This document shows positions 1-41,070 of a stretch of 64,000 nt of DNA, in pieces. The position numbers and the translations under genes were made by a program. The stretch's first letter is position 1. Each line of letters starts with the position of its first letter. The stretch lies in contig CP142736.1 in NCBI GenBank assembly GCA_036630325.1, positions 682,001 through 746,000 of the forward strand, read 5' to 3'. This DNA comes from Vairimorpha necatrix. Its lineage: Eukaryota. The notes beneath the pieces were generated by a model, which saw only the letters and a program-made list of their open reading frames with translations, was not told where the DNA came from and ran no database searches.

Positions 1-1571
1 TATAAAAGATCTTTGCAATCATTATTTCATATATAAAGGTCGCTTATTTTTTTATTTAATATCGGTAAAAAAAGTACTATGTATTTTTAATTCTGAGCCC
101 AATAACTTATATTTTTGTCTCTAATGAATAAAACGAAGGTAAATCAAGTTTAAACCAAACAAACTTAAAAAAGATCCATCAGTACATTAATTAATAATAG
201 ATAAAAGGGGTTTATCGAATATTCGAACCGCATGTTTTTTTAATTTGGTTTTATGGAAATTAATTGCAATTTTTAGTTCTAAAATAGTATTTTTTATTGA
301 AAACATTTGGAACTTTCATCTTAGATAGTATTTTTGTTTTTTTCATTTGCCATTCCTAACAAATTCCTATCTTTCCATTTGTGGCAAAAAAGGATTATCT
401 ATGTAAGAAAATATCGCTTTGTTTTTGACAATTCTATTATATAATTTTTGATAATTTAAATATAATTTGAGATTTGTTTTTTTAAAATATTAGATGTCCT
501 ACCTCCCGTCTAATGTATATAGCTCATAAAGGGATTTTCGCTTTCATGATTTGGTAGTTACATAGAAGTTATTCAAATGTATATTATGATATTGTCATTC
601 ATTCATTTTAATTTTTATGTTCTCATAAGATATAGATCTGCAACAAAAACAAAATTTTATTAGCTGCAAACTTTTCATATTAAATTAGAGATGAATTTCA
701 GTCTATAAGTAACATTTATTTATAAAACTTTACTCTAAAAGAGAAATACTTACTCTTTAGTATATAGTTTTTGTATTAGAATTTGATATAATCAAAACAG
801 TACTATAAAAATGACGAAAAAGCATACTCGGGGTTTTTTATATGAAATAATATCTAATATCCTATTTTTTTGTGAATTCTAAATAATTATCAGTAATATG
901 GTTTGTGTACATCGAGAATCTGTCTATATTTTGTATATATATTATAGAGGCATCTAAACATCTCTTCTCTAGTAACGATGGCTTTGTAAATTAGCTAAAT
1001 AGAAATATTATTTTCAACTACTATTCTTATTTCAGGAAAACAATATTTTATTTAACTATTATATATATTTAAAAATTCCTAAAAGCCTGAAAGCTGCACG
1101 AATAAACAAACTTGTTTCTACTATATCCAAGGATAATGCTATAAAAGATATGGATGTTTTCATCATCATTAGTATCCTTAGTTGCCTGAAATTAGTTCAA
1201 TTATTGCTTAATTTAATATTTATAAAGATATTAGTTAGGTCGAGATCGATTTCTATATCAGACGTTACGGACTACTAGGTTGTGTAAAAATGAATCAAGA
1301 GTTGTTATAGAGTCAAGTATCATGGATTTATAGAAAAGTTGTTTTTGCGAATATTATTTTGTTTATCTCTATAATGATGTATTTATCCAGAAATTATATG
1401 GGAAAACCTTTGAAATATAGTAATTTTTTATAAAAATAAAAAAAAACTGATGCTTGCAATAGTTAACAAGAAATTTTTACGAATATAAGCTATAAGTTAA
1501 ATCTAAAACTTTTGTTACGAATTACAAGTACGAAGTTCTTTTTCATGCTTAAATAGATTACAAATTATACC

Positions 1572-1933
1572 TGTCACACGACATCCTTCCTGTACCTATT
1601 ACAAGCCCAGTGAGACTCTAATATTTGAACCCCGGGCTGTCATATCTCAATTACAGCCGGGTCATGGGCGTAAACAAATACGTCTCCGTCAACAAACAAA
1701 TGACGAATAAGAAAATGTCTATTCTATTGAATATGGCCAGAATATGGAAAGCTGTACAAGAGACCAGCTTCCCCTCCAATAAATGATATGCTTGACGTTT
1801 ATTATAAATAAAACATAAAAGGATGAATTTCTAGCCCTTCACCGAGTCATGAGAGATTATAAAACCAATAAATAGTTTACTAAAAACTCATATATAGACA
1901 CACCGAGCAGCCAGGGAGGCAGCCAGTGTCACA
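1572..1933 (+). repeat. 5' LTR of element 1 (362 bp)
   Basis: Near-identical to 4146-4507, with about 3 mismatches seen. Confidence 0.95.
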
Positions 1934-1992
1934 ATGGCGACAATGCGAATGCCAAAGATAATTTAGAGAATATTATCAAAAAACTAGCAGGA

Positions 1993-4195
1993 ATGCTTAC
2001 AACTGAAAAATACTGCAAATTTAAGGGAACTAGAGGAGAAAACCCAAGAGATTTTATCCAGCAATTTACAGAGTTAGAAGGTGAGAAAACACCGGAACAA
2101 ATCTATAAAATTATAAAAACAAAACTAGAATTTAAAGCCCTCGCATGGTTCGAGGCAAAGGAAGGTCACGAAATACACGATTATGAAAGCTTCATAAAAG
2201 AGTTTGAGGAGGAATATCTGCCGGTATCGGAACCCGAAGATAATGAAAATATGTTTTTTGAACTAATATTCAAAGGCCCAAAATTTCAGGACATCATAAC
2301 TTACGTATACGAGCTAATGAAACGTTCAGAACGAAAGGAAAAGAAACTAATTTACGCAAGAAGGAAGATTAAGGAATACGTCCAGAATGACAACTATCTT
2401 TTTAGATAAACTTGAAGATAGTGAATCCTGGAATGATTTATTGTGGTTCTGCAAGAGATACGAACAGAAGATAAACCTACAAATAAAAAACAAAATTAAC
2501 GGAATTAACCTTAATAATAACAGACGAGAATCCACAAACTCGGAAAAAAGTAACAAAAAAAAGGAGGATAGAGTAATAAAGATAGCGACCTAATAAAACA
2601 TATTGACGATATTAGACCAAGAATAAGGTTGGAAAGCGGATCTATAAATATAAACACACTTTTAGATACAGGAGCGATTGACTCCATAATCAGAAAGGAT
2701 ATGGCTGAGAAATTAAAACTAAAGATAATTTCAGTAAACTCTACAATCAAGGGAATAAGTGGGGAAATGAAAATATATGGACAAACGACCCTATACATCA
2801 AAAAAAGAAAGACATAAAATCTATAAAATGTCAAGTGCTAGAAAACGTCGAAGAGGAACTGATCCTTGGATTCAACGAAATAAATGAATCTGGCCTTTCA
2901 AAATATATAATCAGAACAGGATTGAAAAATAATAACTTAGACAAATAAAAAATAGTCTTAGTTTTAAAACTAGTAGATGAACAACAAGAAAAAACACCAG
3001 AAGTTAATATAGAAGATTTGAATTTAGATAAAACTGTTATTAAAGAACATATCGATGAGTTACGACACATGGTAAACAAATACAAATCCATATTTCTAGA
3101 AAGTAAACAAAGAATACATTATATTTACAACATGCAATTGAACTTATTCACTGGCCAGATAAAATAACATGTGTGAAATACAAAAGATCACCGAAAGAAC
3201 ATGAGTTCATAAAAAAGGAAGAAATAAATTTTTAGAGTGTGGGCTTATTGAAGAAAGTAATAGCAATTTCATTTCACCAGTAGTAATAGTAAAGAAAGAA
3301 GGGAAAAGGCCAAGGTTTTGCATTGATTACCGCAAATTAAATAAATTAACAGGTAAAAATGGATTATCCAATCCTAAGAATCGATTAAACCCTAGATACA
3401 CTATCTAGAGCACAGTACTACACCACGTTAGACATGAAGAGTGGTTACCACCAAGTATATCTAAGAGATGGTGATAAAGAGAAATCGGCCTTTTACACAA
3501 GAGAAGGCATCTTTCAATTAAAACGAATGCCGCATGGATAAACGCACCATTTACTTTCCAGAAAATTATGAATAGGCTATTCAAAGAAATACCACACAAA
3601 TTTGTAGTAATCTATCTTGACGACGTTTTAATCTATTCAAAAACCAAAGAAGAACACCTTTTACATCTAGACAAGGCATTACGGATTATAAAAGACATTG
3701 GTTTCAATCTTAAACATAAAAAAATGCAATATCTTCAAAACCAAAGTAGAATTTATAGGCTACGAGATAACGAAGGGCGAAATGATAATACCCATGAAAC
3801 AGAAAACCAAAGCTTTAGAATTTGCAGAGCTGAAAACAAAGAAAGACGTTAGAGCATGGATGGGATTTACATCCTTTTCCAACCGATTTATAAAAAATTA
3901 TGCGGCCAAAATGGTTCCGTTGTACGAAAGCATTAAAGGAAAAAGAAAAAAATCAGTAATTAAAAAAATAAGGAAATTAAATATTAAACGCGAAGAAAAT
4001 GTTAGACCTGATAAAATATTGGGAGGAGGTGGATTGTACAAGAAATATTCACTAGATGAGAAAGAATATAAAGTGAATTGGAAGGATATCATGTGGATTA
4101 TAGAATCAGATCCAGCAGAGTGGATCTTTCGAAAGGAGGGGAGTGTGTCACACGACATCCTTCCTGTACCTATTACAAGCCCAGTGAGACTCTAA
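1993..4195 (+). pseudogene. Disrupted gag-pol: gag, aspartic protease and RT; RNase H and most of the integrase are missing
   Basis: Gag-like FKGTRGENPRDFIQQF, protease LLDTGAIDS, RT RFCIDYRKLN and IYLDDVLIYS. Broken by several stops and frameshifts. Confidence 0.9.
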
Positions 4196-4507
4196 TATTT
4201 GAACCCCGGGCTGTCATATCTCAATTACAGCCGGGTCATGGGCGTAAACAAATACGTCTCCGTCAACAAACAAATGACGAATAAGAAAATGTCTATTCTA
4301 TTGAATATGGCCAGAATATGGAAAGCTGTACAAGAGACCAGCTTCCCCTCCAATAAATGATATGCTTGACGTTTATTATAAATAAAACATAAAAGGATGA
4401 ATTTCTAGCCCTTCACCGAGTCATGAGAGATTATAAAACCAATAAACAGTTTACTAAAAACTCATATATAGACACAACGAGCAGCCAAGGAGGCAGCCAG
4501 TGTCACA
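4146..4507 (+). repeat. 3' LTR of element 1 (362 bp)
   Basis: Direct repeat of 1572-1933, preceded by the PPT. Confidence 0.95.
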
Positions 4508-4677
4508 ATACCATCAGGGGGATTACAATACAGAGTAAAAAGAAGGTTTAAATTAAACTATCATATTTCTTAAATTGTCATAGCTTTTAAGTTTTAATTG
4601 CGCGGTTTCAATCTAGATGTTTCTTTTATTTCAAAAAAAACACAATTTTTCGTACTTATATAATCTTTAATTATTAT

Positions 4678-7600
4678 TGTCGAATGCTCCTTTATTTACG
4701 AATTGCATGGGGGTAAAAATATATAATATTTATAGAAGGATACGACACCTCTCCCCTAAATTGAAGTATCTGCTTTAACTCGTGTTTTGTTAAGCCTGTA
4801 TACTTTTCTATTCTTTTTTTACCACATAGGCATCGGGTAAAATTATTTCTGTGATCACGTATCCATCTTCCCAATTGCACTTGAACTTCTGGCTTTTGGT
4901 TTCACGATATATTAAAACTTTATCGCTTACGTTTAGCTTTTTCGCTACCTCTTCTTTCCCTTTCACGATTGCTTTTTTGTACTTTTCGAAGTTTTCATCG
5001 CGCTTACTCTTCGTTTCCTCCGCTGAGAATGTCACTTCTTCCTTGTCTAGCGCTTTGTCTACAGACAGCATCGGCAATTTATTCTTCCTTAAAATGAACG
5101 GCGATGTTGTTTATGCTCCGATTATAAACAGGTTGAGGCATCTTGTGGCTTCTGGAAGCTTGTTCTTCCAGCTTACCCTTCCGAAATCTGTAATTTTATT
5201 TAGTATCTTCATTGACGTCTGATTCGCTCTTTCTACTGCGCCTACAGTTTCGTGATGTTCTGGTTTACTGTATTGCCAGTCAATACCGTTCTTTTCGGCC
5301 AGGTCTTTGATGTCAGAATTTATAAATTCAGGCCCGTTGTCAGTCAAGATTCTTTCTGGAATGCCGTGTTTCTCGATAATCAATTGCTGGATTAATCCCA
5401 TTATTGTCGGCCCTGTTTTATAGTTAATAACAGCTGTCTCGACCCATTTAGAGTAGTGGTCAATAGCAATGAATATGAAGCTGTTTTGACCCGAAGTGTC
5501 GCATATGCGTCCTATGAGATCTACCACCCATATTTTGTATGGCCTTTCTGATCGTATAACTTTGTTTTTTGTGTTTCGTAATGGGTATCCCGATTTCAAC
5601 CACGTTTTACACTTTTCTACGCGTTCCTTGATGTCCTTATGCATTCCTGCCCATTTGTACCTCTGAGAAATCATGAAGCTCATCGTACTAGCGCTAGCAT
5701 GTCCAACGTATAGATGGTAGGATTCTAAGATCTTCTGTCTGTCTTCATCGCTTGGTCCTGTAGCTTCGATGATATTTATATCTTTCTCTGTCGGGTTTTG
5801 TCTGCTTAACCCGTCTGCTCCATTAACCTCTCCTTTTATGTAGGTTGATTGAAATGCATACTCCTGCAACTTCATTGCCCACCTCAGCAATCTACTGGTA
5901 GGGTTCTTAGCTTCCCATAGATAAGTCAGCGCTTTGTAGTCCGTCTTCAGTATGAACTCTCTACCCAGGAGGTAGTGTCTATAGTTCTCGATGCCTTTTA
6001 CAACGGCCCAAAGTTCTTTGTCTGTTGTAGAGTAGTTCTTATGGGCTTTCTTTAAACTTTTGCTGAATGCACTTACGAAGTGCTCCTTCCCATCATCTCC
6101 AATCTGTGAGAGGATCGCGCCTATTCCCTGCTCTGACGCATCCGTAGTCAGTATAAACGGTTTCCTGAGATTAATCTTGTATCTTATGTTCTCTTCTGTG
6201 AGAAGTCTCTTTAGATCTTCGAATGCCCGTTTCTCCTTTTTGCTGAGAGAAATACTCTTAACACTTTGCTTTGACTCTCCTTTAAACAGTTCGTAGAGAG
6301 GGGCTGCTATCGCTGATAAGTTACGGATGAACTCCCTACAGTAATTTATGAGCCCATGAAACGACCGTTTTTGAGCAATATTTACGGCTCATTATACTCG
6401 TTTATGGGTTTGACCTTCTCTGTGTCCGGTTTGATCGTCTTGTTTGTGACTATATTTCCTAGAATTTTAATTTCTTCTTTGAAGAAGTGACACTTCTTCC
6501 TGTTAAGTGCGATTCCTGCTGCCTTAAGCTTACGTAATACGATTTCCAAGTGTTCACGGTGTTCCTGGTGATTTTTAGAATAGATAATAATGTCATCCAG
6601 GTATGGTATGACGAATTTTCTGTTTTCTTTCACAAAGATCTTATCCATAGTTCTCTGGAAAGTAGCAGGAGCGATACATAGCCCAAACGGCATCCTGTTA
6701 AATTCATAATGTCTTCCTCTCTAGCTGAATGCTGTCTTCTCCTTGTCTACTTCTTCAAGGGCTACCTGATAATATCCCGACGTAGCATCTAATGTCGAAA
6801 AGATAGTAGCGTCAGCTAGATCGTCGAGAATTATATCAATTCGTGGGAGGGGGCATTTATCTTTGACTGTTATCTTGTTGAGCTCTCTGTAATCTATACA
6901 GAGCCTGATCGACCCATCAGGTTTCGTTACCGGAGCAACTCTACTGTTCCAGGGGCTTCTACTATTTTTTATTACGCCCAACTGCAAGTTTTTCTTGATC
7001 TGTTGTGTGATTTACTCTTCGAAGTGCAGAGGAATCTTTCCGTTTTTCTGGTAAATTGCCTTCGCTACTGTTGTCTCGATTTGATGTTTCCCCATGTTGC
7101 AAAGTGTAAGCTCTAAAATTTCAGTTTTGAACATGTCATGGTATTTCTCTTCGATTGAGATGTAATTGACTTTGTTAATCAGTGAGCCTTTCTTGACTGT
7201 ATTGGCGAATTTTCTGATCAGTTGTTCCAGTAATATGGGGTTCGTTCGTATAGCGTCAACTCCTAAGATTATGTAGTCCGGTGTCCATTCTGTGACGCAA
7301 GGGCTGAAAGTAATTAAAGTGTTTTCCGTCCTAAAATTGATATTTAGACATCTTCCTGTAAACTCCAATGGTGTCCCTGATGCTGCTCGTATGATCGTTG
7401 AAGATCTGGTAAATCTGATATTTGTCCCTTCGAGGACTCTTGTGGGTATCAGGGAGACATCAGCTCCGGTATCAATTAATGCTCGATGTCGTTTACGATT
7501 GAATTCTACGTTTATGTAGCAAGGGTTAGTGAAACAGCTGTTGATCTTGTAGTTTTCTATGGTGTATGGCATATTTCCCTTCTTCGATGGTGCGACCTTC

Positions 7601-8218
7601 AAAGTCCTGTTATCTAGTGTCTCGTCCGTATTAATCGTGTTACTTTTCATAGGGAATGCTATCCAAGAAACTTCCTCTGTGCGCCTCAGGAATTCACTCC
7701 AATCTTGGCATTGTCTAGCAAAATCATAAAGAATTGATTTGAGGACTGAAGGAGACTTCTTGATTACTATGGGGCTGACTGCTTTGTACTCCATTGTTTG
7801 TTGCTCTATAAGGGAGTTTCCTTTCCTGCAGAAGTCTATGAAAGCCTCTAGGTTGCCAAATTGTTGCGGTTTAAAAACCCGTCTAGAGTGGCCAGAGTTT
7901 TCTGTGAACTGTAAAATCTCGATTTTAGACTCTTAGTAACCTCTGCCAGATCAAGTTCGGACACCCGTTCAAATGCCATTGCTATCCATGAGAGGGCTGG
8001 CCCCGTAGACCCAGGCAGATAAGTCTGGCGGTCTGATCTTCTGTCAGTCCAAAAACCCTCGCCGTGAACGTTGTGTCACGCAACCATGTATTTATATCCT
8101 CTTCCTTCTTTCCACTGAAGCAGCCAACAGTTTTTATCGCTGTCGCCATGTCGAATGTTCCTTTATTTACGAATTGCATGGGGGTGAAAATATATAATAT
8201 TTATAGAAGGATACGACA
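4678..8218 (-). mobile_element. Ty3/gypsy LTR retrotransposon with 70-bp LTRs (element 2)
   Basis: 70-bp direct repeats at 4678-4747 and 8149-8218 (TGT...ACA, 2 mismatches). TSD ATTAT at 4673-4677 and 8219-8223. On the minus strand the PBS is TGGCGACA (8148-8141) and the PPT is AGGGGAGAGG (4757-4748). Confidence 0.95.
4808..8179 (-). pseudogene. Fragmented gag-pol with domain order gag-PR-RT-RNaseH-IN
   Basis: ALIDTGADVS (protease), CIDYRELN and PYLDDIIIYS (RT), TTDASEQGIGA (RNase H), integrase core VDLIG...IDHYSKW...TDNGPEF...VERAN. Confidence 0.92.
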
Positions 8219-9073
8219 ATTATAGTTTCTTTTTGAATAGGTTTTTCCAATTATAAACAAAATTATATTTTATTAAAATCATTTTAAATGAACGCGTCTA
8301 GAAAAACAGTTTCTCTAATATATAACAAAAGTACTATATGTTCTAACAAAAATATCTTATAGGCTTGTTGAAAAATAAGATAAAGTCCAAAATTACTTTA
8401 CAACCGGAATACCAATATTAGTAGAATAAAATATACAATAAATATTAATGTCTATTAAAGATGATTTGTCAAAAAATACAAATACAACCGATTTATATTA
8501 CATTTAAATTTATATACGATCCAAGAAGAGTTAGAAATATCAAAAAAGGTACATAGTATCTTATGTGATTAGTTCTTGGTTTTAAGTCAATAGAACATTG
8601 TTATTTCATTTTTTAATTGGAGTTAATTCCGATTTAAAAAAAAATCAACTAAGTTGAATAGATTTCAATTTATGAGGCATCATGGTCATTGTTCTTGTCG
8701 AAATTGATGCCTTCTATTCTTAGGCAGTACACAATACAGCCCCAAATTAACTTTATGATGTTTTATAAAGGTAAATTTTTTTTAAATTCACAAATTTGTC
8801 CTATTTATTTCAGTTAGTGCTCTAAATAGATGTTAAATCTTTTGATATATTTCTTCATAAATTTTCTTATATAATCAGGATGTAAATTAATAAGTAAGAT
8901 TTTAATTTTGATATATTTTCTTAAACTAAATTATTCGTTTCAAAAAAACTATATCCGCGCCCATTACTATGTGGTTTCGATATTATAATCGCCCTTGGGA
9001 AATGTCATAATATTTAATAAGAGATTTGAGTTCAAATTTTTAAAATATGTCCTAATCCGGGTAGTTATTAATC

Positions 9074-9979: not shown

Positions 9980-12513
9980 TGTTATATATTCTTATATTTA
10001 TGAACCCCATTATGGAGAATAAATAAATGGTGGGATACAAATCGTGAGTTAACAAGTGTTGGCTGTGGTCAAGAGGCCAGAAAACTACTGCAAGAATATA
10101 AGATTATTATGTATGAGATCAAAGTTATTGAGTGTAGAGCAATGAAGATTTGAAGAAAATTATTTTTGAAAAGGGAAGTTTGGAGCTAAAATTTTTATGG
10201 TTATGAATATAAGTTTAGAGAATCATCATGACATGATAGGAATACGACTAAAAGAGATTGTAAAAGATTATGAAGATGGAGAAGAGAGATTTAGAATGAT
10301 TGAAGAGGTCACAAAGAAATTGACAAAAGAAATATATACAGAGGAGATAGAGCGTAGGAAACGGTATTTGAGGACAATGAGATGTTTTTATTGTGAAAGG
10401 TTAGGACATAAAAGTAATATATTTTATAATAGATACAGAGAGGAGAGAAATAGACAAGAATGTGAGAAGATATATCAAGAGGACAGTAGCAGCAGCGACG
10501 GAAAATATTACAGGAATACGTGGGCCGGTAAAAGGCAAAAGAAACAGATAGAAGTTGGGCCAGGTATACTATGGAAACGAACTGGAATTGTTAAAGACCT
10601 TAATAAGAGAAGTTATGACACGACAAATTGTTTTTAGAGGCAATTAGACTGTTAGAAGAGAATAACATGAGATTAAACTCAAAGAAGATACATTATCGTC
10701 AATCTGAAGTTAAATTATTAGGAGTAACATTGAATGAGCAGGATATGATGCCATCCGAGATAAAAAAGAATGAAGCATTAGAATTTCCGAAGTTGCAAAA
10801 TGTAACCGACGTAAGAAGATTTTTAGGATTAAGTGGTTGGTTCAGAGGATTTATAAAGAACTACGCAGAGAAAACGATGCACATGACAGATTGCTTAAGA
10901 GGGAAAAACAAAAGTTGGAATTGGACTGAGGAGTTGGATATTGAATTTAGAAATATGAAAAAAGTGCTTAAGAATTTAGGAAAATTGAGGATTGTTAATT
11001 ACGAGAAAGAATTTTTATTAAGAACGGATGCGAGTAAAATTGGTATGGGAGCTGTACTTTTGCAGAAAAATGAAAAAGAGGAATGGGTGCCGGTACAATG
11101 GGCATCAAAGAAATTTACTCCGACTGAAACTAGATACGGAATTAGCGAGAAAGAGATGTATGCCGTATATTGGGGCATAAAGAAGTTTGAGTATGAATTG
11201 AGAGGAAGAAAGTTTAAGGTTGAAACTGATCATAAGGCTTTAGCAGAAATAAGAAGAAAGCCATGTTTTAATAATAATAGGATTAACAGGTGGATAGAGA
11301 TGATTTAAGAGTTTGATTTTGAAATCGAGTACAGGCAACCCGATCAGATGGTTGTTGCTGATGCATTGAGCAGAATTCATGAGGTAAATGAACCGAAGAG
11401 AGAAATGATTAGACAAAGAACAGAGAAACAGATAGCGGGAAAATGGTTAAAGCATGTTGAGAAAGTCGGAGAAAAGGAGTACTGGAATTTTGATTCTGGT
11501 CGTAGAGCGAAAATACCTGCAGTAGGTGATAGGTTAGAGTAAATGAAGAGGTACCACGAAGAACAGGCCCACAGAGGACTAGGAAGTGTCTATTATGCTA
11601 TGAAGTTTGACTATTATTGGCCAGGAATTAAGGAAGATATAAAGATGATGATAAAAAAATGTGAAAAATGCCAAAAATACAATAGGAAAAAATCAGGAGG
11701 ATGTGATTTTATTGCGACAAGTAGATACCTAGAAAAGATGGCAATATATTTAATCGATTATAGAGAATTGGGTAAATTTGTCTTGTTCGTCATTGATTAC
11801 TATACGAGAGTCGCATGGGGTTGCGTGTTGAAAGATAAGCGTGCTAGCTCGATAACTGGATTTATAGAAAATTTGAGTAGAAATGGTAAAAGACCAGAAG
11901 AAATCATATCGGACAATGGAAGATAATTTGCAAATGAGGAATTTCATGAGTTATACAGAAAGTTGGATATAACTCACAGAAAGACCAGTATTGAATCACA
12001 TAAAAGCAATGGGAGAGTTGAAAGAGTTATTGTAACGTTGAGAGAATCTGTTTTGAAAATGAATCCCAAAAATAGCTTTGAAGAAAGAGTTATGAAGGCC
12101 TTTGAGATTTATAATAATAGTTACCTTGAAGGTCTAAGATGCACACCATTTGAGGCAGTTAAAGATAATACGGGCAATGTAATGCTAAGAAATGGACCAG
12201 AAGGAGATTATAGTAGTCGATTTAAAAAGAGATATACAGACAAGTTCGTCGAGAGTGCGAGTTGCGAAGAGTGAAAATTTAAAGGGTCTAATAAGTATGA
12301 AAAAGGTAGGTTTTTGGATATTGGGACGATTAAGATTGTGTGTCCAATGGATTCTTATGTAGTAAAATTAATGAATGGACGATTAGTTAAGAAGAGGCAC
12401 TATGACTTAAAAGATCTGCTTAGGGTTGATGATGACGTAGGAGACTAACCGTCTTGGAGGGGGGATGTTATATATTCTTATATTTTTGAACCCCATTATG
12501 GAGAACAAATACA
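9980..12513 (+). mobile_element. Ty3/gypsy LTR retrotransposon with 48-bp LTRs, internally deleted (element 3)
   Basis: 48-bp direct repeats at 9980-10027 and 12466-12513 (3 mismatches). TSD TTCGA at 9975-9979 and 12514-12518. PBS TGGTGGGATAC at 10028 and PPT GGAGGGGGGA at 12456-12465. Confidence 0.92.
10197..12448 (+). pseudogene. Disrupted gag (CCHC knuckle), RT C-terminal half, RNase H and integrase
   Basis: CFYCERLGH knuckle, RRFLGLSGWFRGFI, LRTDASKIGMGAVL, VVADALSR, H...H...CEKC zinc finger, IISDNG, SNGRVER. Protease and the RT N-terminus are deleted. Confidence 0.9.
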
Positions 12514-15899: not shown

Positions 15900-18516
15900 G
15901 GAGCTTTGTATATTAGGTTTGTGTCTATATACTATATAAAAAAATAACCCTTTTGCTTGTTAACTCTTTCGACGTGGCAGCTGGTGCGGAACTGAAAATG
16001 AAAGGATTAACATTCAGAATTTCTAAGGCCAAGGCAGACTTGGAATATTTATAGTTACAGTTCAACCCCCATAACATTATCCAAGACAAGGCGAAGATAT
16101 CAATTTTCCTTATGATTTTTGAGAGGGAGGCCCAAATTCTACTTACACAAATAGAAAAATCTATAAATGTAATATGAAGCAACTAAAAGGGGAATTGAAA
16201 AAAATGACAGAAAAAATACACTTTTTAAATTACTAGAAGCTAGACAAAATTTAAATGAACCAGTGAGAGAATGACTAGCAAGAGTTATAACTATTGCTTA
16301 TGATTCGGGCATTAGGAAGAAATCGGCAATTAAATAATTTTAAGGACATTTTATTATAGAAGGATTTGTAACATTTAGAGGCTACTTTTTCAACCAGTAT
16401 CTATTCGAGGATTGCTTAAATAAGATAGAATTATTAAGGAGGAGAGAATACTTAATGAAAAAAAAAGGAAAATTTGGAAATAAAAAATCCATAGGGTTAG
16501 CATTAAGCAAAAAAGAATCAACAAATATGTTCCGGAAGAGAACAAAATATGTACTTAAAAATTATAATTAACAATCTACAAACACCATTAGGAGAAGTCA
16601 AGACAACGGTAGTATGTATTGCGGGCGATAAAATATATGCAGTAGTAGATATTAGAAGTATTTGTAATTTAATTAGTTGGAAGCTGGTAGAAGAAAAGAG
16701 ATTTCTTAACAACAAAATAAAAGTGACTACTAAAACTAATATCTTTGAACAAGAAAACACTTTAACAGAGTACGTAGAAATAACTGCACCTTATATAACA
16801 TCCAAATAACGACCAACTTCAACATTATGACCAATAATCAGTTCATCTTTTGATTGAACCCCTAAATTATGTAAATTAAAAAAATTGAGACATGAGATAG
16901 GTGAACTTGAGAAGAAGGGTTGTAAAGTATTTAAAGTAAGCCATCAGAAGGTTCTAATAAAATATTAGGCACAATAAATACAAAAGAAGCAACCTGAGTC
17001 AATGTTAAAAAAATAAATATACCAAATGGGGCATAAAAGGTAACTGAAAAGCAAAAACAAAGCTATTAAATTCAAGTTATATAAAAAGACAACCTAGCCA
17101 TGATACAATCATGCCCCCAGTAAAAACCCCCCCGATGAAAATATAGAATATCTGTTACAACAGATGGTTAAATAAAATCGTAGAGGACAATAATTACTCG
17201 GTCCCAAAAATAAATGAAACTATCGATATGACACAGAGCAAAAAGATTTTCACAGTATAAAACCTAACGGATAAAATTTTTCCAAATTAAAATTGATCCT
17301 AAGGATAAATTTAAAACATCCCTTTATTTAAGAACAATTTGTATCAAAGTACTAAAATGCCATAAGGTTTTAAGAATTTACCTGCAATTTTTCATAAGAT
17401 AATGGACAACATCTTATGCGATATCATGAAAAATAAATTAAAGGCCTATATAGACGGCATAATTGTATATGGCGATTCCGAAAAGAGCTGATCAGAGCTT
17501 TTTAGAAGTTCTACAATAAGTTATAGAAAAAAAATGCATTATAAATGTACAAAAAAAAACTTTTGCCATCTAAGATCAACGAGTCAACTCAAAGACCAAA
17601 AAGAGAACATCAGAGAAAGATTTTAAATTTAAAAGAACCAAAAATAAGAAACCCCTACAAAAAAACTAGGATTTGCTAATTACTATAAAAAATATATCGC
17701 GCGGCTAGCAACAATTTCGCAACCATTAAATGATGCACTTGATGGTCTTTAAAACAAAGATTAATTTTAAAGGAATGAAGAATGTGAGACGCATTTTGCA
17801 ACATAAAACTATAGATAAATTCTGTCATAGCAACAAACGTAACAGACTTTACAAAACTTATTGTTCTTACAATAATTACTTCTAATAACGGAATCAAGTG
17901 TGGCCTTTAAGAATTAAAAGTTGGTGAACTTATGCTATTGATTGGGGATAAAAAAACTGCCCTAAGCAAATAAAATACCTATTAACTGTGAAAAATATCT
18001 AGCAATGGCTTGGGGATATAGCACTATAAACTATATCCTTGGACTTGGTTTTAAACTAATAATTAAATACACTGCCCACACAGTTCCTAAACTAAACATA
18101 TATTTTATAATATGAAACTAGAACATAGGGTAACAACTTTAAAGCTTTGGTTCCCCGATACACTACAAGAAAGGCACAAAAATCATTGAGGCTGATGTAT
18201 TAAATAGAACTTATGAACCGTCAAACCGAACTAACGATTTGAAGTGCTCAAAAGATGAGCTCATCGATTCTAAAGATACACAGTATTATTAAGTAAATAA
18301 CACAAAAACAAAGAACTTATCGCCAGTCGAAGATAGGCCAGCGCTTCCTGAGGATGCATATAAAAAGCTTACAAACTATGGTGGAAGAGATACAATGCTT
18401 CATGATAAAAAAAGAAACTATCAATGGCCCAAATAAAACGAATCAATTGTTCAATATCTTAAACGTCGTAAACCTTGTCAATGTAATCAACAAAAGACAC
18501 AAGGAGAAGAAAAATT
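15900..18516 (+). pseudogene. Heavily decayed Ty3/gypsy gag-pol remnant, cut off by a Merlin derivative
   Basis: Residual motifs: MP*GFKNLPAIF (about 17356), AYIDGIIV (about 17444), IIEADVLNR (about 18182) and an integrase zinc-finger region near 18350-18480. The left boundary is approximate. Confidence 0.7.
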
Positions 18517-25547: not shown

Positions 25548-26794
25548 CACCAGGTTGATTCTGCCTGACGTAGACGCTATTCCCTAAGATTAACCCATGC
25601 ATGTTTTTGATATGGAAAAATGGACTGCTCAGTAATACTCACTTTATTTAATGTATTAAATTAGTATAACTGCGTTAAAGTGTAGCATAAGACATATACA
25701 GTAAGAGTGAGACCTATCAGCTAGTTGTTAAGGTAATGGCTTAACAAGGCAATGACGGGTAACGGTATTACTTTGTAATATTCCGGAGAAGGAGCCTGAG
25801 AGACGGCTACTAAGTCTAAGGATTGCAGCAGGGGCGAAACTTGACCTATGGATTTTATCTGAGGCAGTTATGGGAAGTAATATTCTATTGTTTCATATTG
25901 TAAAAGTATATGAGGTGATTAATTGGAGGGCAAATCAAGTGCCAGCAGCCGCGGTAATACTTGTTCCAAGAGTGTGTATGATGATTGATGCAGTTAAAAA
26001 GTCCGTAGTTTATATTTAAGAAGCAATATGAGGTGTACTGTATAGTTGGGAGAGAGATGAAATGTGACGACCCTGACTGGACGAACAGAAGCGAAAGCTG
26101 TACACTTGTATGTATTTTTTGAACAAGGACGTAAGCTGGAGGAGCGAAGATGATTAGATACCATTGTAGTTCCAGCAGTAAACTATGCCGACGATGTGAT
26201 ATGATATTAATTGTATTAGATGATAGAAATTTGAGTTTTTTGGCTCTGGGGATAGTATGATCGCAAGATTGAAAATTAAAGAAATTGACGGAAGAATACC
26301 ACAAGGAGTGGATTGTGCGGCTTAATTTGACTCAACGCGAGGTAACTTACCAATATTTTATTATTCAGAGAAGATTTATAATCTGAGAATGATAATAGTG
26401 GTGCATGGCCGTTTTTAATGGATGCTGTGAAGTTTTGATTAATTTCAACAAGACGTGAGACCCTTTTATTAATAGACAGACACAATCAGTGTAGGAAGGA
26501 AAGGATTAAAACAGGTCCGTTATGCCCTCAGACATTTTGGGCTGCACGCGCAATACAATAGATATATAATCTTTATGGGATAATATTTTGTAAGAGATAT
26601 TTGAACTTGGAATTGCTAGTAAATTTTATTAAATAAGTAGAATTGAATGTGTCCCTGTTCTTTGTACACACCGCCCGTCGCTATCTAAGATGATATGTGT
26701 TGTGAAATTAGTGAAAACTACTTGAACAATATGTATTAGATCTGATATAAGTCGTAACATGGTTGCTGTTGGAGAACCATTAGCAGGATCATAA
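25548..26794 (+). rRNA. Microsporidian SSU rRNA (about 1.25 kb)
   Basis: 5' CACCAGGTTGATTCTGCC plus universal blocks GTGCCAGCAGCCGCGG, TTGTACACACCGCCCGTC, AAGTCGTAAC and GGATCA. Confidence 0.98.
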
Positions 26795-29450: not shown

Positions 29451-29881
29451 AGTCTTACCAACCTTCGGCTGCTGGTTGGTAAGTAGGGTCAGCTATACTC
29501 TAGGGGTGGGAGACCCATTGCTGGTGAGAAGGACACCGTTAACTTTCGAGTAATTCTTCATATTTTTAACCTGGGAGAGGTTGGGCATGATACTGAAGCT
29601 GTATTGTTCCGCTGAACTGAGTCGTGTTCTTAAATGGTGTATTGAACCAGGCGTTGTGTTTTCGTCAGGTCCGCGAAATATGTAGTCAGAGATGACTAAG
29701 GATCTGTTACCTACGGGAACAAATTTTTCTCCTACAAGCGAGGCCGTTGAGGTATGCTGGCGTGTAATCGCAATTATTGATGTTTTTCTGGTTGGTGGAG
29801 TTTTTGGTGGCTTGGTGGCTTTTCTTCGTTTTGCTGATTCTGTCTTTTTTACAATAAACAATTTTATTTTTTTTTTTTATT
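29451..29881 (+). mobile_element. Short non-autonomous element sharing the LINE 3' UTR
   Basis: Flanked by an exact 28-bp direct repeat (29423-29450 and 29882-29909). 29569-29881 is a diverged copy of the LINE 3' end (37153-37474, 41160-41474). The first 115 bp or so are unrelated to the LINE. Confidence 0.8.
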
Positions 29882-29908
29882 ATGTTTTTTAACTAGGTGC
29901 AGATCTCT

Positions 29909-31582
29909 ATGAAGGGTAAAGTAAGAGAAAGCAGGAGCGAGCTCAGTAGAGCAAAAAGTGACCACTTTGGTGGTCCAAACAACAATTTAGATACAGAAAT
30001 GTATTTAAAACAACAAACTAAGCATGTATATGCTAGTAAAAGTTTCCCAAGTGTTACTTTTAAAAATGATGGAGAAATGAAATATTTTCTCAAGAAAATC
30101 AAAATTCTTTCAAAAAGAATTAATAAAAATGATATTTTTGACACATCAAAAAAAGATAACAATAAAGATCTTATTGATCTTAAAAGATACATATCTAGCA
30201 CTACTGAATTAGTATTGATTCAGCAGACATATCTGGAGCTCTTTCATGAAAAGCTAGAAAAACAAAACATCAAACTAAAAAATTTGATTAAAAATAATGT
30301 GATGGATGACAGTGATCAAATTACTGATTCATCAAAAAATAAATTTGAGATAATGATTGAGAATCACTCAAAAGAATGTGTAGAACAAAAGGATAATAAC
30401 TCCGATGTTCCAAATGATACCAGTAGCGAAACCCTTCAGTTAGCTACTGGAAACAATGATATTTCTAAATTAGAAATCATAAATGAAGATGTTTTAATTA
30501 ATGTCAAAAATATCGTGTCTGCTGTCAAAGTAGAAGAAGAAGATCGATTGTCAGAAGATGGCAAAAGAAAATGTATAGGTGTCTCAAATGCGTCTACAAA
30601 TATTATAATTAACAAGAATAGTAAAACACAAGATGGTAAGCTAGATATAGCCTCCATTAACAAAAAAGCAGTAGTTAGACATCTGTCAACTATCTCTGCT
30701 ATTATAGCTGGTAAAAGAAAAGCTCCTAAGAATGAAGTCAAACTTTACCATACAAATGAAGACGGATGGACATCTGTCAAACACACATTCAAGCCTAAAG
30801 TCCAGATAGACTTGAAGAAAAACAGAAGGGGTAAAACCACGTATAAATCCAACTTTAATAGATTTAAATCACTTAAAGTGGAATCCGCTGGCAATGTAAA
30901 AGTGCCCAAAAATTCTATTCATGCAGCTTTACATGAGAAAAACAAATTATCTACTAAAGACTATAAAAAAAAAAGATTACAATATCATAAAATAAATTTT
31001 ACTCAAAAAATGAAAAATAGAAACAATGAGAAATGTCAACAAAAAAGAAGTCCAGTTTTTCCAGTGAAAAACTGGGCCAAAGAGCTAACGGAAGAAGCTC
31101 TTATGAAAATTATAAAGGATGGTAGAATTATTTCCAAATGTAAGTTTAGGCTAGCTCTTGCTTCTGGACTCGGATTACAAGGGAAACCTCAATCTAGAGA
31201 CGCATGGGCAGCCCTAACGGATGTTGAAAATAAAGATATACCACTTATAAAACAATTTAAAGATTCGGAAGTAGTACTTTTGATGATTAGAGAAAACGTG
31301 TGCCCTAAGGTACTAGGCAAAATTAAAGAAAAGTTCGTAGGTTCTAATATCTGTGAGGAAGTTAATTTCTTCATCGACTTTTTGTCTTTAACAAAAACAA
31401 CTGTTCTAGGAGAACTACAAAGACTCTCTGGAACGCATAAAAACTTTGTACCACTTGTTAAAGCATGTAGGTACATAACTAAAGAATTAAATAAAGAAAA
31501 GCCAAACCATGGATATTTCATTTATTTAGAAAATATGATGGGTGAGCCTGCCCGAGAATCTAAGGACTTTAATAATGAATAA
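29909..31582 (+). CDS. LINE ORF1 (outer copy), basic, no recognisable domain
   Basis: Intact ORF of about 557 aa starting MKGK, paralogous to 31685-33379. Its stop overlaps the ORF2 ATG. Confidence 0.85.
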   Translation: MKGKVRESRSELSRAKSDHFGGPNNNLDTEMYLKQQTKHVYASKSFPSVTFKNDGEMKYFLKKIKILSKRINKNDIFDTSKKDNNKDLIDLKRYISSTTELVLIQQTYLELFHEKLEKQNIKLKNLIKNNVMDDSDQITDSSKNKFEIMIENHSKECVEQKDNNSDVPNDTSSETLQLATGNNDISKLEIINEDVLINVKNIVSAVKVEEEDRLSEDGKRKCIGVSNASTNIIINKNSKTQDGKLDIASINKKAVVRHLSTISAIIAGKRKAPKNEVKLYHTNEDGWTSVKHTFKPKVQIDLKKNRRGKTTYKSNFNRFKSLKVESAGNVKVPKNSIHAALHEKNKLSTKDYKKKRLQYHKINFTQKMKNRNNEKCQQKRSPVFPVKNWAKELTEEALMKIIKDGRIISKCKFRLALASGLGLQGKPQSRDAWAALTDVENKDIPLIKQFKDSEVVLLMIRENVCPKVLGKIKEKFVGSNICEEVNFFIDFLSLTKTTVLGELQRLSGTHKNFVPLVKACRYITKELNKEKPNHGYFIYLENMMGEPARESKDFNNE

Positions 31583-31684
31583 AGTATCCTTGTTAAAGTT
31601 CTGTTTTTATAGGAAATTATTTTCCTATAACAAAAGTGATATTTTTAAATCTCTAAATAAAAAAACTCATAATCCAATTGGATA

Positions 31685-33379
31685 ATGAAGGGTAAAGCGC
31701 AACAAACCAGGAGCAAGCTCAGTAGAGCAAAAAGTGACCACTTTGGTGGTCCAAACAACAATTTAGATACAGAAATGTATTTAAAACAACAAACTAAGCA
31801 TGTATATGCTAATAAAAGTTTCCCAAGTGTTACTTTCAAAAATGATGGAGAAATGAAATATTTTCTCAAGAAAATCAAAATTCTTTCAGAAAGAATTAAT
31901 AAAAACGATATTTTTGACACGTCAAAAAAAGAAAATAACAAAGATCTTCTTGATATTAAAAGATACATATCTAGCACTACTGAATTAGTATTGATTCAGC
32001 AGACATATTTGGAGCTCTTCCATGATAAGCTAGAAAAACAAAATATCAAATTAAAAAATTTGAAAAAAAATAATCTGATGGATGACAGTAATCAAATTAC
32101 AGAATCAACAAAAAATAAAATTGAGATGATGATAGAGAATCACTCAAAAGAATGTGTAGAACAAAAGGATAATAACTCCGATGTTCCAAATGATACCAGT
32201 AGCGAAACCCTTCAGTTAGCTACTGGAAACAATGATATTTCTAAATTAGAAATCATCAATGAAGATGTTTTAATTAATGTCAAAAATCTCCCATCTGCTG
32301 TCATAAATCTCGACACTGCTGTCAAAGTAGAAGAACAAGATAAATTGTCAGAAGATGGCAAAAGAAAATGTATAGATGTTTCAAAGGCATCTACAGATAT
32401 TATAATTAATAAAAATATTAAACCAAAAGATGGTAAGCTAGATATAGCTTCCATCAACAAAAAAGCAGTAGTTAGACATCTGTCAACTATCTCTGCTATT
32501 ATAGCTGGTAAAAGAAAAGCTCCTAAGAATGGAGTCAAGCTTTTCCATATAAACGAAGACGGATGGACATCTGTCAAACACACATTCAAGCCTAAAGTCC
32601 AGATAGACTTGAAGAAAAACAGAAGTGGTAAAACCACAGATAAAACCAACTTTAATAGATTTAAATCACTTAAAGTAGAAACTAGTGGCAATGTAAAAGT
32701 GCCTAAAAAGATTAATCATGAAGCTGTAAAGAGAAAAGATATCATTCCTAAAAGAGATCATGAAAAAAGAAGATTACTAAATCAGAAAATAAATTTTACA
32801 AAAAAAACGAAGGACAGAAAAAATGAGAAATGTCAACAAAAAAGAAGGCCAGTTTTACCAAAGAAAAACTGGGCCAAAGAGCTAACTGAAGAAGCTCTTA
32901 TGAAAATTATAAAGGATGGTAGAATTATTTCCAAATGTAAGTTTAGGCTAGCTCTTGCTTCTGGACTCGGATTGAAAGGGAAACCTCAATCTAGAGACGC
33001 TTGGGCAGCCTTAGCTGATGTGGAAAATAAAGATATACCACTTATAAAACAATTTAAAGACTCGGAAGTAGTACTTCTGATGATTAGAGAACACGTGTGC
33101 CAAAAGGTACTAAGCAAGATTAAAGAAAAGTTCGGAGGTTCTAATATCTGCGATGAAGTTAATTTCTTCATCGACTTTTTGTCTTTAACAAAAACAACTG
33201 TTCTAGGAGAGCTGCAAAGACTCTCTGGAACGCATAAAAATTTTGTACCGCTTGTAAAAGCATGTTGGTACATAACTAAAGAATTAAATAAAGAAAAGCC
33301 AAACCATGGTTCCTTCATTTATTTAGAAAATATGATGGGTGAGCCTGCCCGAGAATCTAAGGACTTTAACAATGAATAA
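31685..33379 (+). CDS. LINE ORF1 (inner copy), 564 aa
   Basis: Intact ORF, a diverged paralog of 29909-31582. Confidence 0.88.
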   Translation: MKGKAQQTRSKLSRAKSDHFGGPNNNLDTEMYLKQQTKHVYANKSFPSVTFKNDGEMKYFLKKIKILSERINKNDIFDTSKKENNKDLLDIKRYISSTTELVLIQQTYLELFHDKLEKQNIKLKNLKKNNLMDDSNQITESTKNKIEMMIENHSKECVEQKDNNSDVPNDTSSETLQLATGNNDISKLEIINEDVLINVKNLPSAVINLDTAVKVEEQDKLSEDGKRKCIDVSKASTDIIINKNIKPKDGKLDIASINKKAVVRHLSTISAIIAGKRKAPKNGVKLFHINEDGWTSVKHTFKPKVQIDLKKNRSGKTTDKTNFNRFKSLKVETSGNVKVPKKINHEAVKRKDIIPKRDHEKRRLLNQKINFTKKTKDRKNEKCQQKRRPVLPKKNWAKELTEEALMKIIKDGRIISKCKFRLALASGLGLKGKPQSRDAWAALADVENKDIPLIKQFKDSEVVLLMIREHVCQKVLSKIKEKFGGSNICDEVNFFIDFLSLTKTTVLGELQRLSGTHKNFVPLVKACWYITKELNKEKPNHGSFIYLENMMGEPARESKDFNNE

Positions 33380-36300: not shown

Positions 36301-37063
36301 GATATTCAAAAGAGTATTAGTTCCACTAGATAGAGTAATGGACGAGTTCAGTATCGAACGAATTCATATACAAGCAGCTTTAAGTAGATTTAGAGCATAC
36401 AACAAGTGGAAACACAATAAGACAATCATATCGGATATAATCTCAATCAATCCGAAAGAAAGAAAAACTACCTGGTGTTCAAGAACACAAAGATGGTTAA
36501 AACGATTTGTCGGCAACGATTATGAATCAACTGATAGTAGATTTATCACTACAAAAATAATTGATGTACTAAGAAGTCGAAGAACTCTAAATACTTCTTT
36601 AGCTGCATCAATAGCAAACCAATATGACATAAGAAATTCACAAATAAAATATGTCATGAACAAAATAAATAATAGGAAAATTAGAACATATGCTAGATTG
36701 AGATGTAATCTAGTAAAGTAATCCTCAGCAATAGCCAATTCAAAAAGAATATCTATGAGTTATAGAAACGAATGCTTTTTGTGTGATGGACCACAAGAAA
36801 ATTTAGAACACTTTCTGCTGGAGTGCGTCTGTTTAACTGACATTAGATCATCTTTTGAAAATAAACTGCCTCTACTGACTTGTTCAAAAACAAATATCCG
36901 AGATAAAACCAAGCAACTCCTTGGTAATAAAATCGGACTAAAAAATAACCCAGATAAGATAAAAGAACTTTGTTGCACTATAGAGTTCTTAGATAGAATG
37001 GTTGTCTCTAGAAGAATTATGATTAATAACAAACTGAAGGAGATAACGAAACAAAATAATTAA
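33372..37063 (+). pseudogene. LINE ORF2 (inner copy): AP endonuclease, RT and C-terminal CCHC finger, with one frameshift and one in-frame stop
   Basis: APE motifs LNINHL, CLQETW, MGDMN, IDTIF, LSDH. RT motifs NYRGISL, FIDFEKAYD, GVRQGCPCSPMLF, FADD. Finger CFLC..ENLEHFLLEC. 1-nt deletion near 34986 and TAA at 36719-36721. Confidence 0.92.
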
Positions 37064-37473
37064 TATAGCTTAATTAAAAAAAATGAAAATCTAGAATTAG
37101 AAGAAAGAAGTGTTATATTATTAACAAAAAGACTTATATTTAATTATATTTGACCTGGGAGAGGTCGGGCATGATACTGATGCTGTATTGTTCCGCTGAA
37201 CTGAGTCGTGTTCTTAAATGGTGTATTGAGCCAGGCGTTTTCGTTTTTCATTAGACCCGTGAAAGTGGGTCTCTAGTCATATTATGACTAAGGATGTGTC
37301 CTATGGGAACAAACTTTTCTCCTACAAGCGAGGCCGTTAAGGTATGCTGGCGTGTAAACGCAATTATTGATGATTTTTTCTTTATTAGTGGAGTTTTTGG
37401 TGGCTTGGAGGCTTTTCTTCGTTTTGCTGATTCTGTCTTTTTTACAATAAACAATTTTATTTTTATTTTTTTT

Positions 37474-40400: not shown

Positions 40401-41070
40401 AGCATACAACAAGTGGAAACACAATAAGACAATCATATCGGATATAATCTCAATCAATCCGAAAGAAAGAAAAACTACCTGGTGTTCAAGAACACAAAGA
40501 TGGTTAAAACGATTTGTCGGCAACGATTATGAATCAACTGATAGTAGATTTATCACTACAAAAATAATTGATGTACTAAGAAGTCGAAGAACTCTAAATA
40601 CTTCTTTAGCTGCATCAATAGCAAACCAATATGACATAAGAAATTCACAAATAAAATATGTCATGAACAAAATAAATAATAGGAAAATTAGAACATATGC
40701 TAGATTGAGATGTAATCTAGTAAAGTAATCCTCAGCAATAGCCAATTCAAAAAGAATATCTATGAGTTATAGAAATAAATGCTTTCTGTGTGATGGACCA
40801 CAAGAAAATTTAGAACATTTTCTGTTAGAGTGCGTCTGTTTAACTGACATTAGAACATCCTTTGAAAATAAACTGCCCCTACTGACTTGTTCAAAAACAA
40901 ATATCCGAGATAAAACCAAGCAACTCCTTGGTAATAAAATCGGACTAAAAAATAACCCAGATAAGATAAAAGAACTTTGTTGCACTATAGAGTTCTTAGA
41001 TAGAATGGTTGTCTCTAGAAGAATTATATTTAATAACAAACTGAAGGAGATAACGAAACAAAATAATTAA
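37474..41070 (+). pseudogene. LINE ORF2 (outer copy), continuing from 31575-31684, with multiple lesions
   Basis: Same domains as the inner copy. TGA at 38864-38866, frameshifts near 39027, 39347 and 40293, and TAA at 40726-40728. Confidence 0.92.

Follow-up and report, generated by a model that had tools for sequence, protein, structure and literature searches.

The locus and the boundaries of the element

The 64,000-nt stretch of contig CP142736.1 of the microsporidian Vairimorpha necatrix that is considered here (the window; all coordinates are positions in it) contains on its minus strand, at 8218..4678, a 3541-bp element that is almost certainly a defective copy of a very compact family of Ty3/gypsy retrotransposons with long terminal repeats (LTRs). 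Its features are collected in Table 1 as they are read on the minus strand. The two LTRs are direct repeats of 70 nt each, 2.9% diverged, with mismatches at LTR positions 33 and 61; none of 100 shuffles gave such a match, and there is no third LTR copy in the window. On the minus strand the LTR reads TGTCG...CGACA. Direct repeats with such TG...CA termini and a target-site duplication of 4-6 bp are found in Ty3/gypsy elements, as are a primer-binding site (PBS) that begins with TGG and adjoins the 5' LTR, a polypurine tract that adjoins the 3' LTR, and the domain order protease, reverse transcriptase (RT), RNase H, integrase, which Pfam recognized in the pieces of the open reading frames (ORFs) of the window and in the intact relative P0002 described below. 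The GC content of the element is 41%, as compared to 30% for the window. A tRNA search of the window returned no tRNA gene and hence no matching primer, and a scan of 8100-8300 for bacterial promoters and terminators, with a tool unsuited to a eukaryote, gave no site.

A Ty3/gypsy element of complete architecture with 70-bp LTRs had already been proposed in a sequence-only reading of this stretch, and the LTR pair, the target-site duplication, the PBS, the polypurine tract and the Pfam order bear this out. The element does lie within the span of 4673-8223 that had been given, but this span includes the 5-bp duplication at each end.

Table 1. Features of the retrotransposon copy, from its upstream to its downstream end, and a candidate RNA stem
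Feature	Position	Strand	Remark
Target-site duplication ATAAT, upstream copy	8219..8223	-	identical to 4673-4677
5' LTR, 70 nt	8149..8218	-	68/70 positions as in the 3' LTR
TATAAAT, TATA-box-like	8199..8205	-	26 nt upstream of ATG 8179
TTTTCACCCCC, T-run and C-run, microsporidian gene-start motif	8180..8190	-	directly before the ATG, -11..-1
LTR-internal ATG, proposed gag-pol start	8177..8179	-	in frame with gag
AATAAA, hexamer resembling a poly(A) signal	8163..8168	-	in-frame Asn-Lys; ends 13 nt before the LTR end
Second in-frame ATG (border ATG)	8147..8149	-	last LTR base A and TG of the PBS; ten codons after the first
PBS TGGCGACAGCG	8138..8148	-	from the first base after the 5' LTR; within the reading frame, part of Met-Ala-Thr-Ala
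Gag region, probably capsid-like	7520..8179, bounds approximate	-	frame broken near 8005 and 7872
Aspartic protease	7243..7515	-	Pfam gag-asp_proteas and RVP; coordinates mapped from the P0002 alignment
Reverse transcriptase	6454..6927	-	Pfam RVT_1 on P0002, mapped to the window; in-frame stop at 6723
RNase H	5858..6244	-	Pfam RT_RNaseH (5.1e-35), plus RT_RNaseH_2
Integrase, H2C2 zinc-binding domain and catalytic core	5255..5749	-	Pfam Integrase_H2C2 (8e-11), rve (1.9e-14)
Pol stop TAG	4756..4758	-	last 20 residues of P0002 align to 4818-4759, then TAG
Polypurine tract AGGGGAGAGG	4748..4757	-	abuts the 3' LTR
3' LTR, 70 nt	4678..4747	-	from repeat comparison
Target-site duplication ATAAT, downstream copy	4673..4677	-	read from the sequence
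CCAUG/CAUGG candidate stem	8186-8140; L001 198-240; L003 1599-1636	- (window)	folds no better than shuffles

A decayed copy and its intact relatives

The best protein matches of the element are three V. necatrix proteins with 100%, 95% and 87% identity (best 120 of 693 matches, from 5229 candidates), and the next ones, at about 45-53% identity among the matches listed, come from Nosema granulosis, Pancytospora, Enteropsectra and Pseudoloma. The GC content of the window (0.30) fits the composition of the V. necatrix genome, for which 28.3% GC and about 50% repeats have been reported (PMC10759460). The intact polyprotein P0002 of 1141 residues, which is encoded on another V. necatrix contig, begins with MQFVNKGTFDMATAIK and ends with ...RVKADTSI, and it shares its first 16 residues with the window frame that opens at ATG 8179. 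The sequence-only reading had let gag begin at this ATG inside the LTR, and the sequence MQFVNKGTFDMATAIK is indeed as it had been noted, but in the window copy the frame stays open for 65 codons only (7982-8179). As compared to P0002, the frame changes near 8005, 7872, 6370 and 4816, and there are in-frame stops at 7014, 6723, 6384 and 5113. The description as an all-domain element therefore holds as far as the domains are recognized by homology, but the copy is dead, with no uninterrupted gag-pol frame, which that reading had missed. In the public annotation of V. necatrix it is nevertheless represented by an 'endonuclease' of 1026 amino acids (P0001), which maps to 4811-8179 (minus strand) in three blocks that skip the frameshifts and stops; the introns of this gene model are spurious, and what it covers is a decayed retrotransposon.

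Three related elements were found by a scan of genome contigs, on contigs of 1.7-4.2 kb. L001 is an element of 3590 bp with 64% identity to the window element, a pair of 75-nt LTRs that are 100% identical, and one ORF (205-3666) that starts at an LTR-internal ATG, so that 3462 of its 3590 nt are coding. L002 (50% identity) has an LTR of 176 nt and likewise one ORF (195-3860) that starts inside the LTR, and of L003 (68% identity, 75-nt LTR) only the 3' end is present. Single gag-pol ORFs of 1141, 1153 and 1221 codons are thus found in P0002, L001 and L002, respectively. A stretch of 17 nt at the PBS (TGGCGACAGCGATAAAA) is identical in L002, an element of only about 50% protein identity, and polypurine tracts lie at the same place in L001 (AGGAGGAGAGG), L002 (GGGGAGGAGG) and L003 (GGGGGAGGGG). 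From a set of matches in other organisms (L004-L011, 28-40% identity), L004 and L005 were checked for repeats and were uninformative, as was the start of L004. The contigs of L001, L002 and L003 have been binned into a bacterial metagenome-assembled genome (MAG), yet they encode gypsy elements of the microsporidian type with eukaryotic signals, and several other top protein matches likewise stand under bacterial MAG names; these are probably cases of eukaryotic repeat DNA that has been mis-binned into bacterial genomes.

At the other end of the element, the integrase end had been thought to be overprinted in the LTR as well. This does not apply to the window copy, as its pol stop, which shares bases with the polypurine tract, is separated from the 3' LTR by 8 nt. 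The L002 pol frame, in comparison, runs through the polypurine tract and stops at a TAG inside TGTCGTAG, 8 nt into the 3' LTR (3853-3860), and the C-terminus of the related protein P0005 (...SAGEVS) fits such a stop inside the LTR. In some relatives, the integrase end thus overlaps the LTR, unlike in the family of the window element.

Host-like gene-start signals inside the LTR

A promoter-like TATA/CCC module, an ATG, an AATAAA hexamer and the primer site had been described as lying within about 80 bp, and all of them can be read in the sequence as described (Table 1). The arrangement resembles the start of microsporidian genes. In Nosema ceranae, a yeast-type TATA[AT]A[AT] peaks at -27 from the start codons, and within 15 nt of the ATG a T-run precedes CCC, which is enriched at -10 to -3 (PMC2685015). 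The motif TTTTTTTACCCC recurs in seven Nosema species, where it has been linked to expression, and C-runs are otherwise rare in Nosema genomes and are tied to gene starts (PMC11592040). In Encephalitozoon cuniculi, 5' untranslated regions (UTRs) of less than 7 nt have been determined by rapid amplification of cDNA ends, and a CCC-like motif immediately precedes the start codon (PMC2803860).

The same signals are found at host genes of the window. Five of the ten window ORFs examined have a TATA at -25 to -34 and, no further than 10 nt from the first ATG, CCC or GGG (19804+, 42680-, 55728-, 61760- and 13552-, the last one with GGG), the start context of the host gene at 61760 (minus strand) being TTTTTCACCCC|ATG. 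The signals are absent from the other five, which are 25885-26331, 58957-59421, 62439-62801 (an ORF with no ATG) and the transposon ORFs 1876-2409 and 29897-31582. At the border ATG 8149, there is no CCC within 15 nt. As far as can be read from the sequence, it is the context of ATG 8179, and not that of ATG 8149, that matches the starts of host genes.

Conservation of the LTR-internal ATG

An in-frame ATG that is not followed by a stop is found in 14% of the shuffles of the window LTR, and in 14-19% across shuffled LTRs, which is why the LTR-internal ATG becomes meaningful only by comparison with relatives. In all four LTRs that could be read as DNA (window, L001, L002 and L003), CCC or GGG directly precedes an in-frame ATG-CAA, and AATAAA or ATTAAA ends 10-16 nt before the LTR end. 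In the window, TTTTCACCCCC is followed by MQFVNKGTFD and then by MATAIK, in a frame that is broken further on, and AATAAA is 13 nt from the LTR end. In L001, TTTTTAACCC precedes the ATG, the frame reads MQELINKQVD and then MATATK, and AATAAA is 10 nt from the end, as is ATTAAA in L003, where TTTTTACCCTC is followed by ATG CAA and ten in-frame codons that end in GAC A. The longer LTR of L002 has TATAAAT at -27, ATG CAA with 16 in-frame codons, and AATAAA 16 nt from its end. L002 differs between its own two LTRs at the same place, with GGAGGG-ATG in the 5' LTR (188-197) and GGGCCC-ATG in the 3' LTR (3973-3982); both GGG-like and CCC-like variants of the microsporidian start motif have been described (PMC2803860).

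The conservation of the frame, which had been proposed as a check of the LTR-internal start, was also followed in the related polyproteins. A pattern of the border residues (M/L-A-[ST]) followed by the F-x-G of gag is present in 34 of 263 collected proteins, of which P0001, as the window locus itself, and P0044, as N-terminally incomplete, were dropped. The proteins examined include six (P0123, P0155, P0160, P0186, P0214 and P0220) from a profile search of 1.84 billion representatives with an 11-row alignment (150 matches), the other matches of which were mostly long multi-copy gene models. Of the remaining 32 proteins, 24 are extended in frame by 8-28 residues upstream of the border M/L-A-[ST], so that the check came out positive in these as well as in the four LTRs. 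The binomial probability of 24/32 is about 1e-11 at p0 = 0.19, if the related proteins are treated as independent. By eye, 18 of the 24 extensions end in Asp, which fits the LTR end GAC-A before TGG, and 10 contain Asn-Lys, the in-frame reading of AATAAA, this being a count with no control. Two of the 24, P0033 and P0155, carry Leu where the others have the border Met, and must therefore start upstream of this position.

Proposed expression of the intact elements

It is thus probable that the intact members of this family produce a nearly leaderless mRNA and begin gag-pol at the LTR-internal ATG. The 70-nt LTR would consist of about 33-38 nt of U3 and about 32-37 nt of R, U5 being almost or wholly absent. 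U3 would hold the integrase-recognition end TGTCGTA, the TATA box and the T-run/CCC gene-start motif of the host, and the start of transcription would be, like that of host genes, no more than a few nucleotides away from the CCCCC run. The first AUG (8179) would then open the single gag-pol frame of 1141 codons, which would read through R with AAUAAA as Asn-Lys, the LTR terminus GAC-A as Asp and the primer site A|TGGCGACAGCG as Met-Ala-Thr-Ala, and which would terminate at the TAG in overlap with the polypurine tract. In an intact copy the coding part, counted from ATG 8179 through the pol stop, would amount to 3424 of 3541 nt (96.7%). As the leader would be so short, part of the ribosomes may also initiate at the border AUG, and AUG 8179 would be used either instead of or alongside AUG 8149.

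Several points weigh against such a start. The window copy cannot make the protein at all. Eight of the 32 related proteins begin exactly at the border Met, among them P0005, which is the closest full-length relative from outside Vairimorpha among the matches listed and starts with MATATK, and the border residue is Met in 30 of the 32 and Leu in only two. The count of extensions is inflated by gene callers, as these favour the longest frame, and the 32 proteins are related to each other and were chosen by the motif pattern, so that they are not independent trials. The extensions vary in length (8-28 amino acids) and in sequence, and in a structural model of L001 gag the extension is disordered (residues 1-8 with a predicted local distance difference test score, pLDDT, of <50); in the model and in the sequences there is no sign of a role of the extensions at the protein level. 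In L001, the best match to TATA[AT]A[AT] is at -19 instead of -27. Transcription may start at or just downstream of 8179, and the border AUG may be the main or a second start.

Taken together, these points lead to the alternative that the border ATG (8149-8147) is the sole start of gag, that transcription begins past 8179 or ribosomes skip the cap-proximal AUG, and that the LTR ATG is a by-product of a promoter or initiator (CCC-ATGCAAG) in a frame that is open by accident. The TATA at -26 could well place the start site on or just after the ATG, and ATGCAAG is kept at the nucleotide level in L001, L002 and L003 (ATGCAA in the window) and could be a DNA or RNA signal. Part of the evidence can be read in another way, as the conservation of the border Met is also forced by the terminal A of the LTR and the TGG of the primer site, and Met-Ala is invariant at the border in an alignment the rows of which had been selected for having Met-Ala. 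What speaks against a start at the border only is that the in-frame ATG with no stop is present in 4/4 LTRs and 24/32 proteins as compared to 14-19% by chance, that AATAAA is always in the sole register that avoids TAA and is read as Asn-Lys (window, L001 and L002), that two families have no border Met, and that the host-like context belongs to ATG 8179. A sole start at the border is therefore rather unlikely.

The putative poly(A) signal in both LTRs

As the hexamer is present in both LTRs, premature polyadenylation at the 5' LTR would have to be avoided. If transcription starts near the CCCCC run, AAUAAA in the 3' LTR would direct cleavage at or just past the LTR end, while no more than about 12-18 nt would separate the 5' hexamer from the cap, and about 30 nt its cleavage site, which would be too close for the cleavage machinery to assemble; such an occlusion of poly(A) sites by promoter proximity is known from human immunodeficiency virus 1 (HIV-1) and cauliflower mosaic virus. 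In addition, the UA-rich tract TATAAATATTATATATTTT is upstream of the presumed start site and would thus be in the RNA at the 3' end only, where it could act as an upstream element. UA-rich upstream elements belong to fungal poly(A) sites, as is known from yeast. In E. cuniculi, recognition of AAUAAA has been described as stochastic, with transcription overrun and frequent read-through (PMC2803860). An inefficient reading of microsporidian poly(A) signals, together with the cap proximity and the missing UA-rich tract, could let most transcripts run on.

Retroviruses have found several solutions to the same problem, namely a signal in U3 (RSV, Rous sarcoma virus; MMTV, mouse mammary tumour virus; HTLV-1, human T-cell leukaemia virus 1), suppression by the U1 small nuclear ribonucleoprotein bound to a splice donor further downstream, in combination with U3 enhancers (HIV-1), and sites that are weak in the two LTRs (Moloney murine leukaemia virus, MoMLV) (PMC3694450). 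A splice donor is unlikely in the window element, since it has a single ORF in a nearly intron-free host. The first solution could apply if the working poly(A) signal were the TATA box of U3 (UAUAAA, in the RNA from the 3' LTR only), in which case R would have a few nucleotides and AATAAA would be in U5, unused or auxiliary. TATAAA at 8205-8200 precedes every plausible start site, L002 has TATAAATAAA, which contains AATAAA, at the same place, and RSV, MMTV and HTLV-1 provide the precedent, but a canonical hexamer is missing from the U3 of L001 and L003, AATAAA or ATTAAA is kept in each of the four LTRs at the spacing from the LTR end that is expected of a working signal, and an R of a few nucleotides leaves very little homology for the first strand transfer. 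A signal in U3 is thus quite improbable, and the hexamer in R is the better candidate.

An RNA structure that hides the 5' AAUAAA was also considered and rejected. The minimum-free-energy folds of the predicted leader are no better than those of shuffles (z 0.87 for the window and -0.59 for L001), and RNAalifold gave 0 pairs on the three R regions; the lack of a significant shielding fold counts against the proposed mechanism. As a lead only, a stem could form between CCAUG, around the first AUG, and CAUGG, where the LTR ends and the PBS starts, which would place the hexamer in the loop, and the inner stem of this pairing varies by family (UCG/CGA, CAA/UUG and CAAG/CUUG).

That the whole arrangement is a chance product in a decayed repeat is extremely improbable and disfavoured, for although the window copy is dead, 14% of its LTR shuffles give an in-frame ATG and AATAAA-like strings are common in DNA of 30% GC, three other families with 50-68% protein identity show the motifs in the same order, in two of these an intact ORF starts at the LTR ATG, and C-runs are uncommon in these genomes and associated with gene starts (PMC11592040).

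Protein domains and gag

The Pfam scan took in 23 of the 28 long ORFs of the window; left out were 4830-5222 (plus strand, antisense within the element) and, in a region of LINE-like elements (resembling long interspersed nuclear elements) described below, the minus-strand ORFs 29493-29876, 32212-32715, 33611-34162 and 37618-38169. In P0002, the protease is at residues 223-313, RVT_1 at 419-576, RNase H at 647-775, Integrase_H2C2 at 812-864 and rve at 879-975. Residues 1-220 of P0002 gave no Pfam gag domain, and a protein search with gag only (P0002 residues 1-230) returned just three V. necatrix proteins and no further families. A language-model search for look-alikes pointed to Retrotrans_gag clusters at 0.90, which was rated a lead only. 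A gag profile of L001 and L002 matches the domesticated Ty3/gypsy capsid PNMA2 with E-values of 0.02 and 0.055. The AlphaFold model of L001 gag, with a mean pLDDT of 69.9 from an alignment of two sequences only, matches the PNMA2 capsid with E 3.3e-4 and template-modelling scores (TM) of 0.49/0.58, followed by the dArc1 and dArc2 capsids, with the Ty3 capsid further down at E ~1. By this model, gag appears to be capsid-like, which for the window copy rests on its homology to L001 (64% identity).

Between gag and protease, the alignment consensus of most relatives has a knuckle-like stretch, C-x2-H-G-x3-H-x-T-x2-C. It is missing in the V. necatrix family (P0002 and L001; P0002 residues ~180-220), and this absence accounts in part for the smaller size of that family.

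Neighbouring retroelements

The first 20 kb of the window are mostly retroelement debris. At about 110-160 bp from the element described above, a second gypsy-type element of another family is found at 1572-4510 (plus strand). Its LTRs (1572-1871 and 4146-4445) are 100% identical over 300 nt and continue to ~1933 and ~4507, and from 1935 onward, one base past the CA of the LTR, there is a PBS-like TGGCGACAATGCG with the 8-mer TGGCGACA in common with the PBS of the first element. It looks internally deleted, since there are only about 2.6 kb between the LTR starts and an RT fragment that is 33% identical to P0002. Further gypsy-type fragments at 10170-12151 and 17087-17746 (both plus strand) contain RNase H, integrase zinc domain and rve and are 25-28% identical to P0002.

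The region 29897-40728 (plus strand) contains two consecutive sets of long ORFs (33336-36721 and 37451-40309) with endonuclease/exonuclease/phosphatase and RVT_1 domains, by which these are recognized as copies of LINE-like non-LTR retrotransposons. They are preceded by the long ORFs 29897-31582 and 31673-33379, which have no Pfam match.

Implications

If the proposed layout is true, it sets a lower bound on a working LTR, with a promoter of about 35 nt and an R of about 35 nt that doubles as coding sequence. The end recognized by integrase, the poly(A) signal, the primer site for the tRNA and the protein code would share the same bases, and the conserved motif Asp-Met-Ala-Thr/Ser-Ala would be explained by constraints on the nucleic acid, in which four signals overlap. 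The design would couple the element to the biology of its host, that is to the nearly leaderless mRNAs and the leaky polyadenylation of microsporidia. There are also practical consequences, as LTR finders with a default minimum LTR of about 100 bp would miss such elements, and as the public annotation of V. necatrix lists a dead copy under 'endonuclease', as a gene that is spliced. Tentatively it can be suggested that a minimal LTR with the host gene-start module as its whole promoter, essentially no U5, no untranslated leader, a translated R and about 97% coding sequence is a clade-wide design among microsporidian gypsy elements, and that these are the most compact autonomous LTR retrotransposons described; the minimal size of an LTR would then be set by the compactness of the expression signals of the host.

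Comparison with known systems

The closest known systems are the microsporidia-specific Ty3/gypsy groups with a single polyprotein, three of which have been described by Parisot et al. 2014 (PMC4202319). They have the same single gag-pol ORF and the same order of protease, RT, RNase H and integrase, and the family of the window element, with its one ORF and, among the matches listed, its microsporidian nearest relatives, belongs with them. The term PBS does not occur in the main text of that article, the available part of which gives no LTR lengths, primer site or start-codon position for these groups (PMC4202319). Similarly, the words LTR and retrotransposon are not used in the main text of the V. 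necatrix genome paper (PMC10759460). No published description of an LTR of 70-75 nt with the gag start inside was found in a search that did not extend to subscription journals, and no priority is claimed; nor did the literature search turn up anything specific on which autonomous LTR elements are the smallest. The Nbr elements of Nosema bombycis, attributed to Xu and colleagues in 2006, are reportedly microsporidian Ty3/gypsy elements as well.

Short LTRs and often a single ORF are also features of the Mag lineage of Ty3/gypsy elements of insects, and the LTRs of Mag in Bombyx are about 77 bp long. Mag-like elements of Culex have 4-5 kb, LTRs of 119-304 bp and a PBS for tRNA-Ser or tRNA-Leu (PMC3286476). 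In a comparison by description, all LTRs of the respective table exceed 70 nt, and the window element is surpassed in length by at least 0.5 kb (PMC3286476). With those retroviruses that have the hexamer in R, the element shares the problem of premature polyadenylation, but it has no evident splice donor, and the distance of about 12-18 nt that is suggested here between hexamer and cap is far closer.

The layout as such has a precedent in Ty1 of Saccharomyces cerevisiae, a Ty1/copia element in which the AUG of GAG is inside the 5' LTR of 334 bp, with the RNA starting at nt 241 and a 5' UTR of 53 nt, and in which the PBS (RNA nt 95-104) is inside the GAG coding region, so that silent PBS mutations had to be designed (PMC5454406). 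Both the gag start within the LTR and the PBS within gag are thus like in the element described here, for which the use of the LTR ATG is the probable reading. Ty1 differs in that it belongs to another superfamily with integrase before RT, has an LTR that is about five times longer, and uses a gag/pol frameshift instead of one ORF, and its leader of 53 nt contrasts with one of presumably a few nucleotides here. In the window element, moreover, the final LTR base and the PBS itself together form a second ATG. The principle of a gag start in the LTR is therefore already known from Ty1, and the family of the window element would represent an extreme, clade-wide compaction of that layout.

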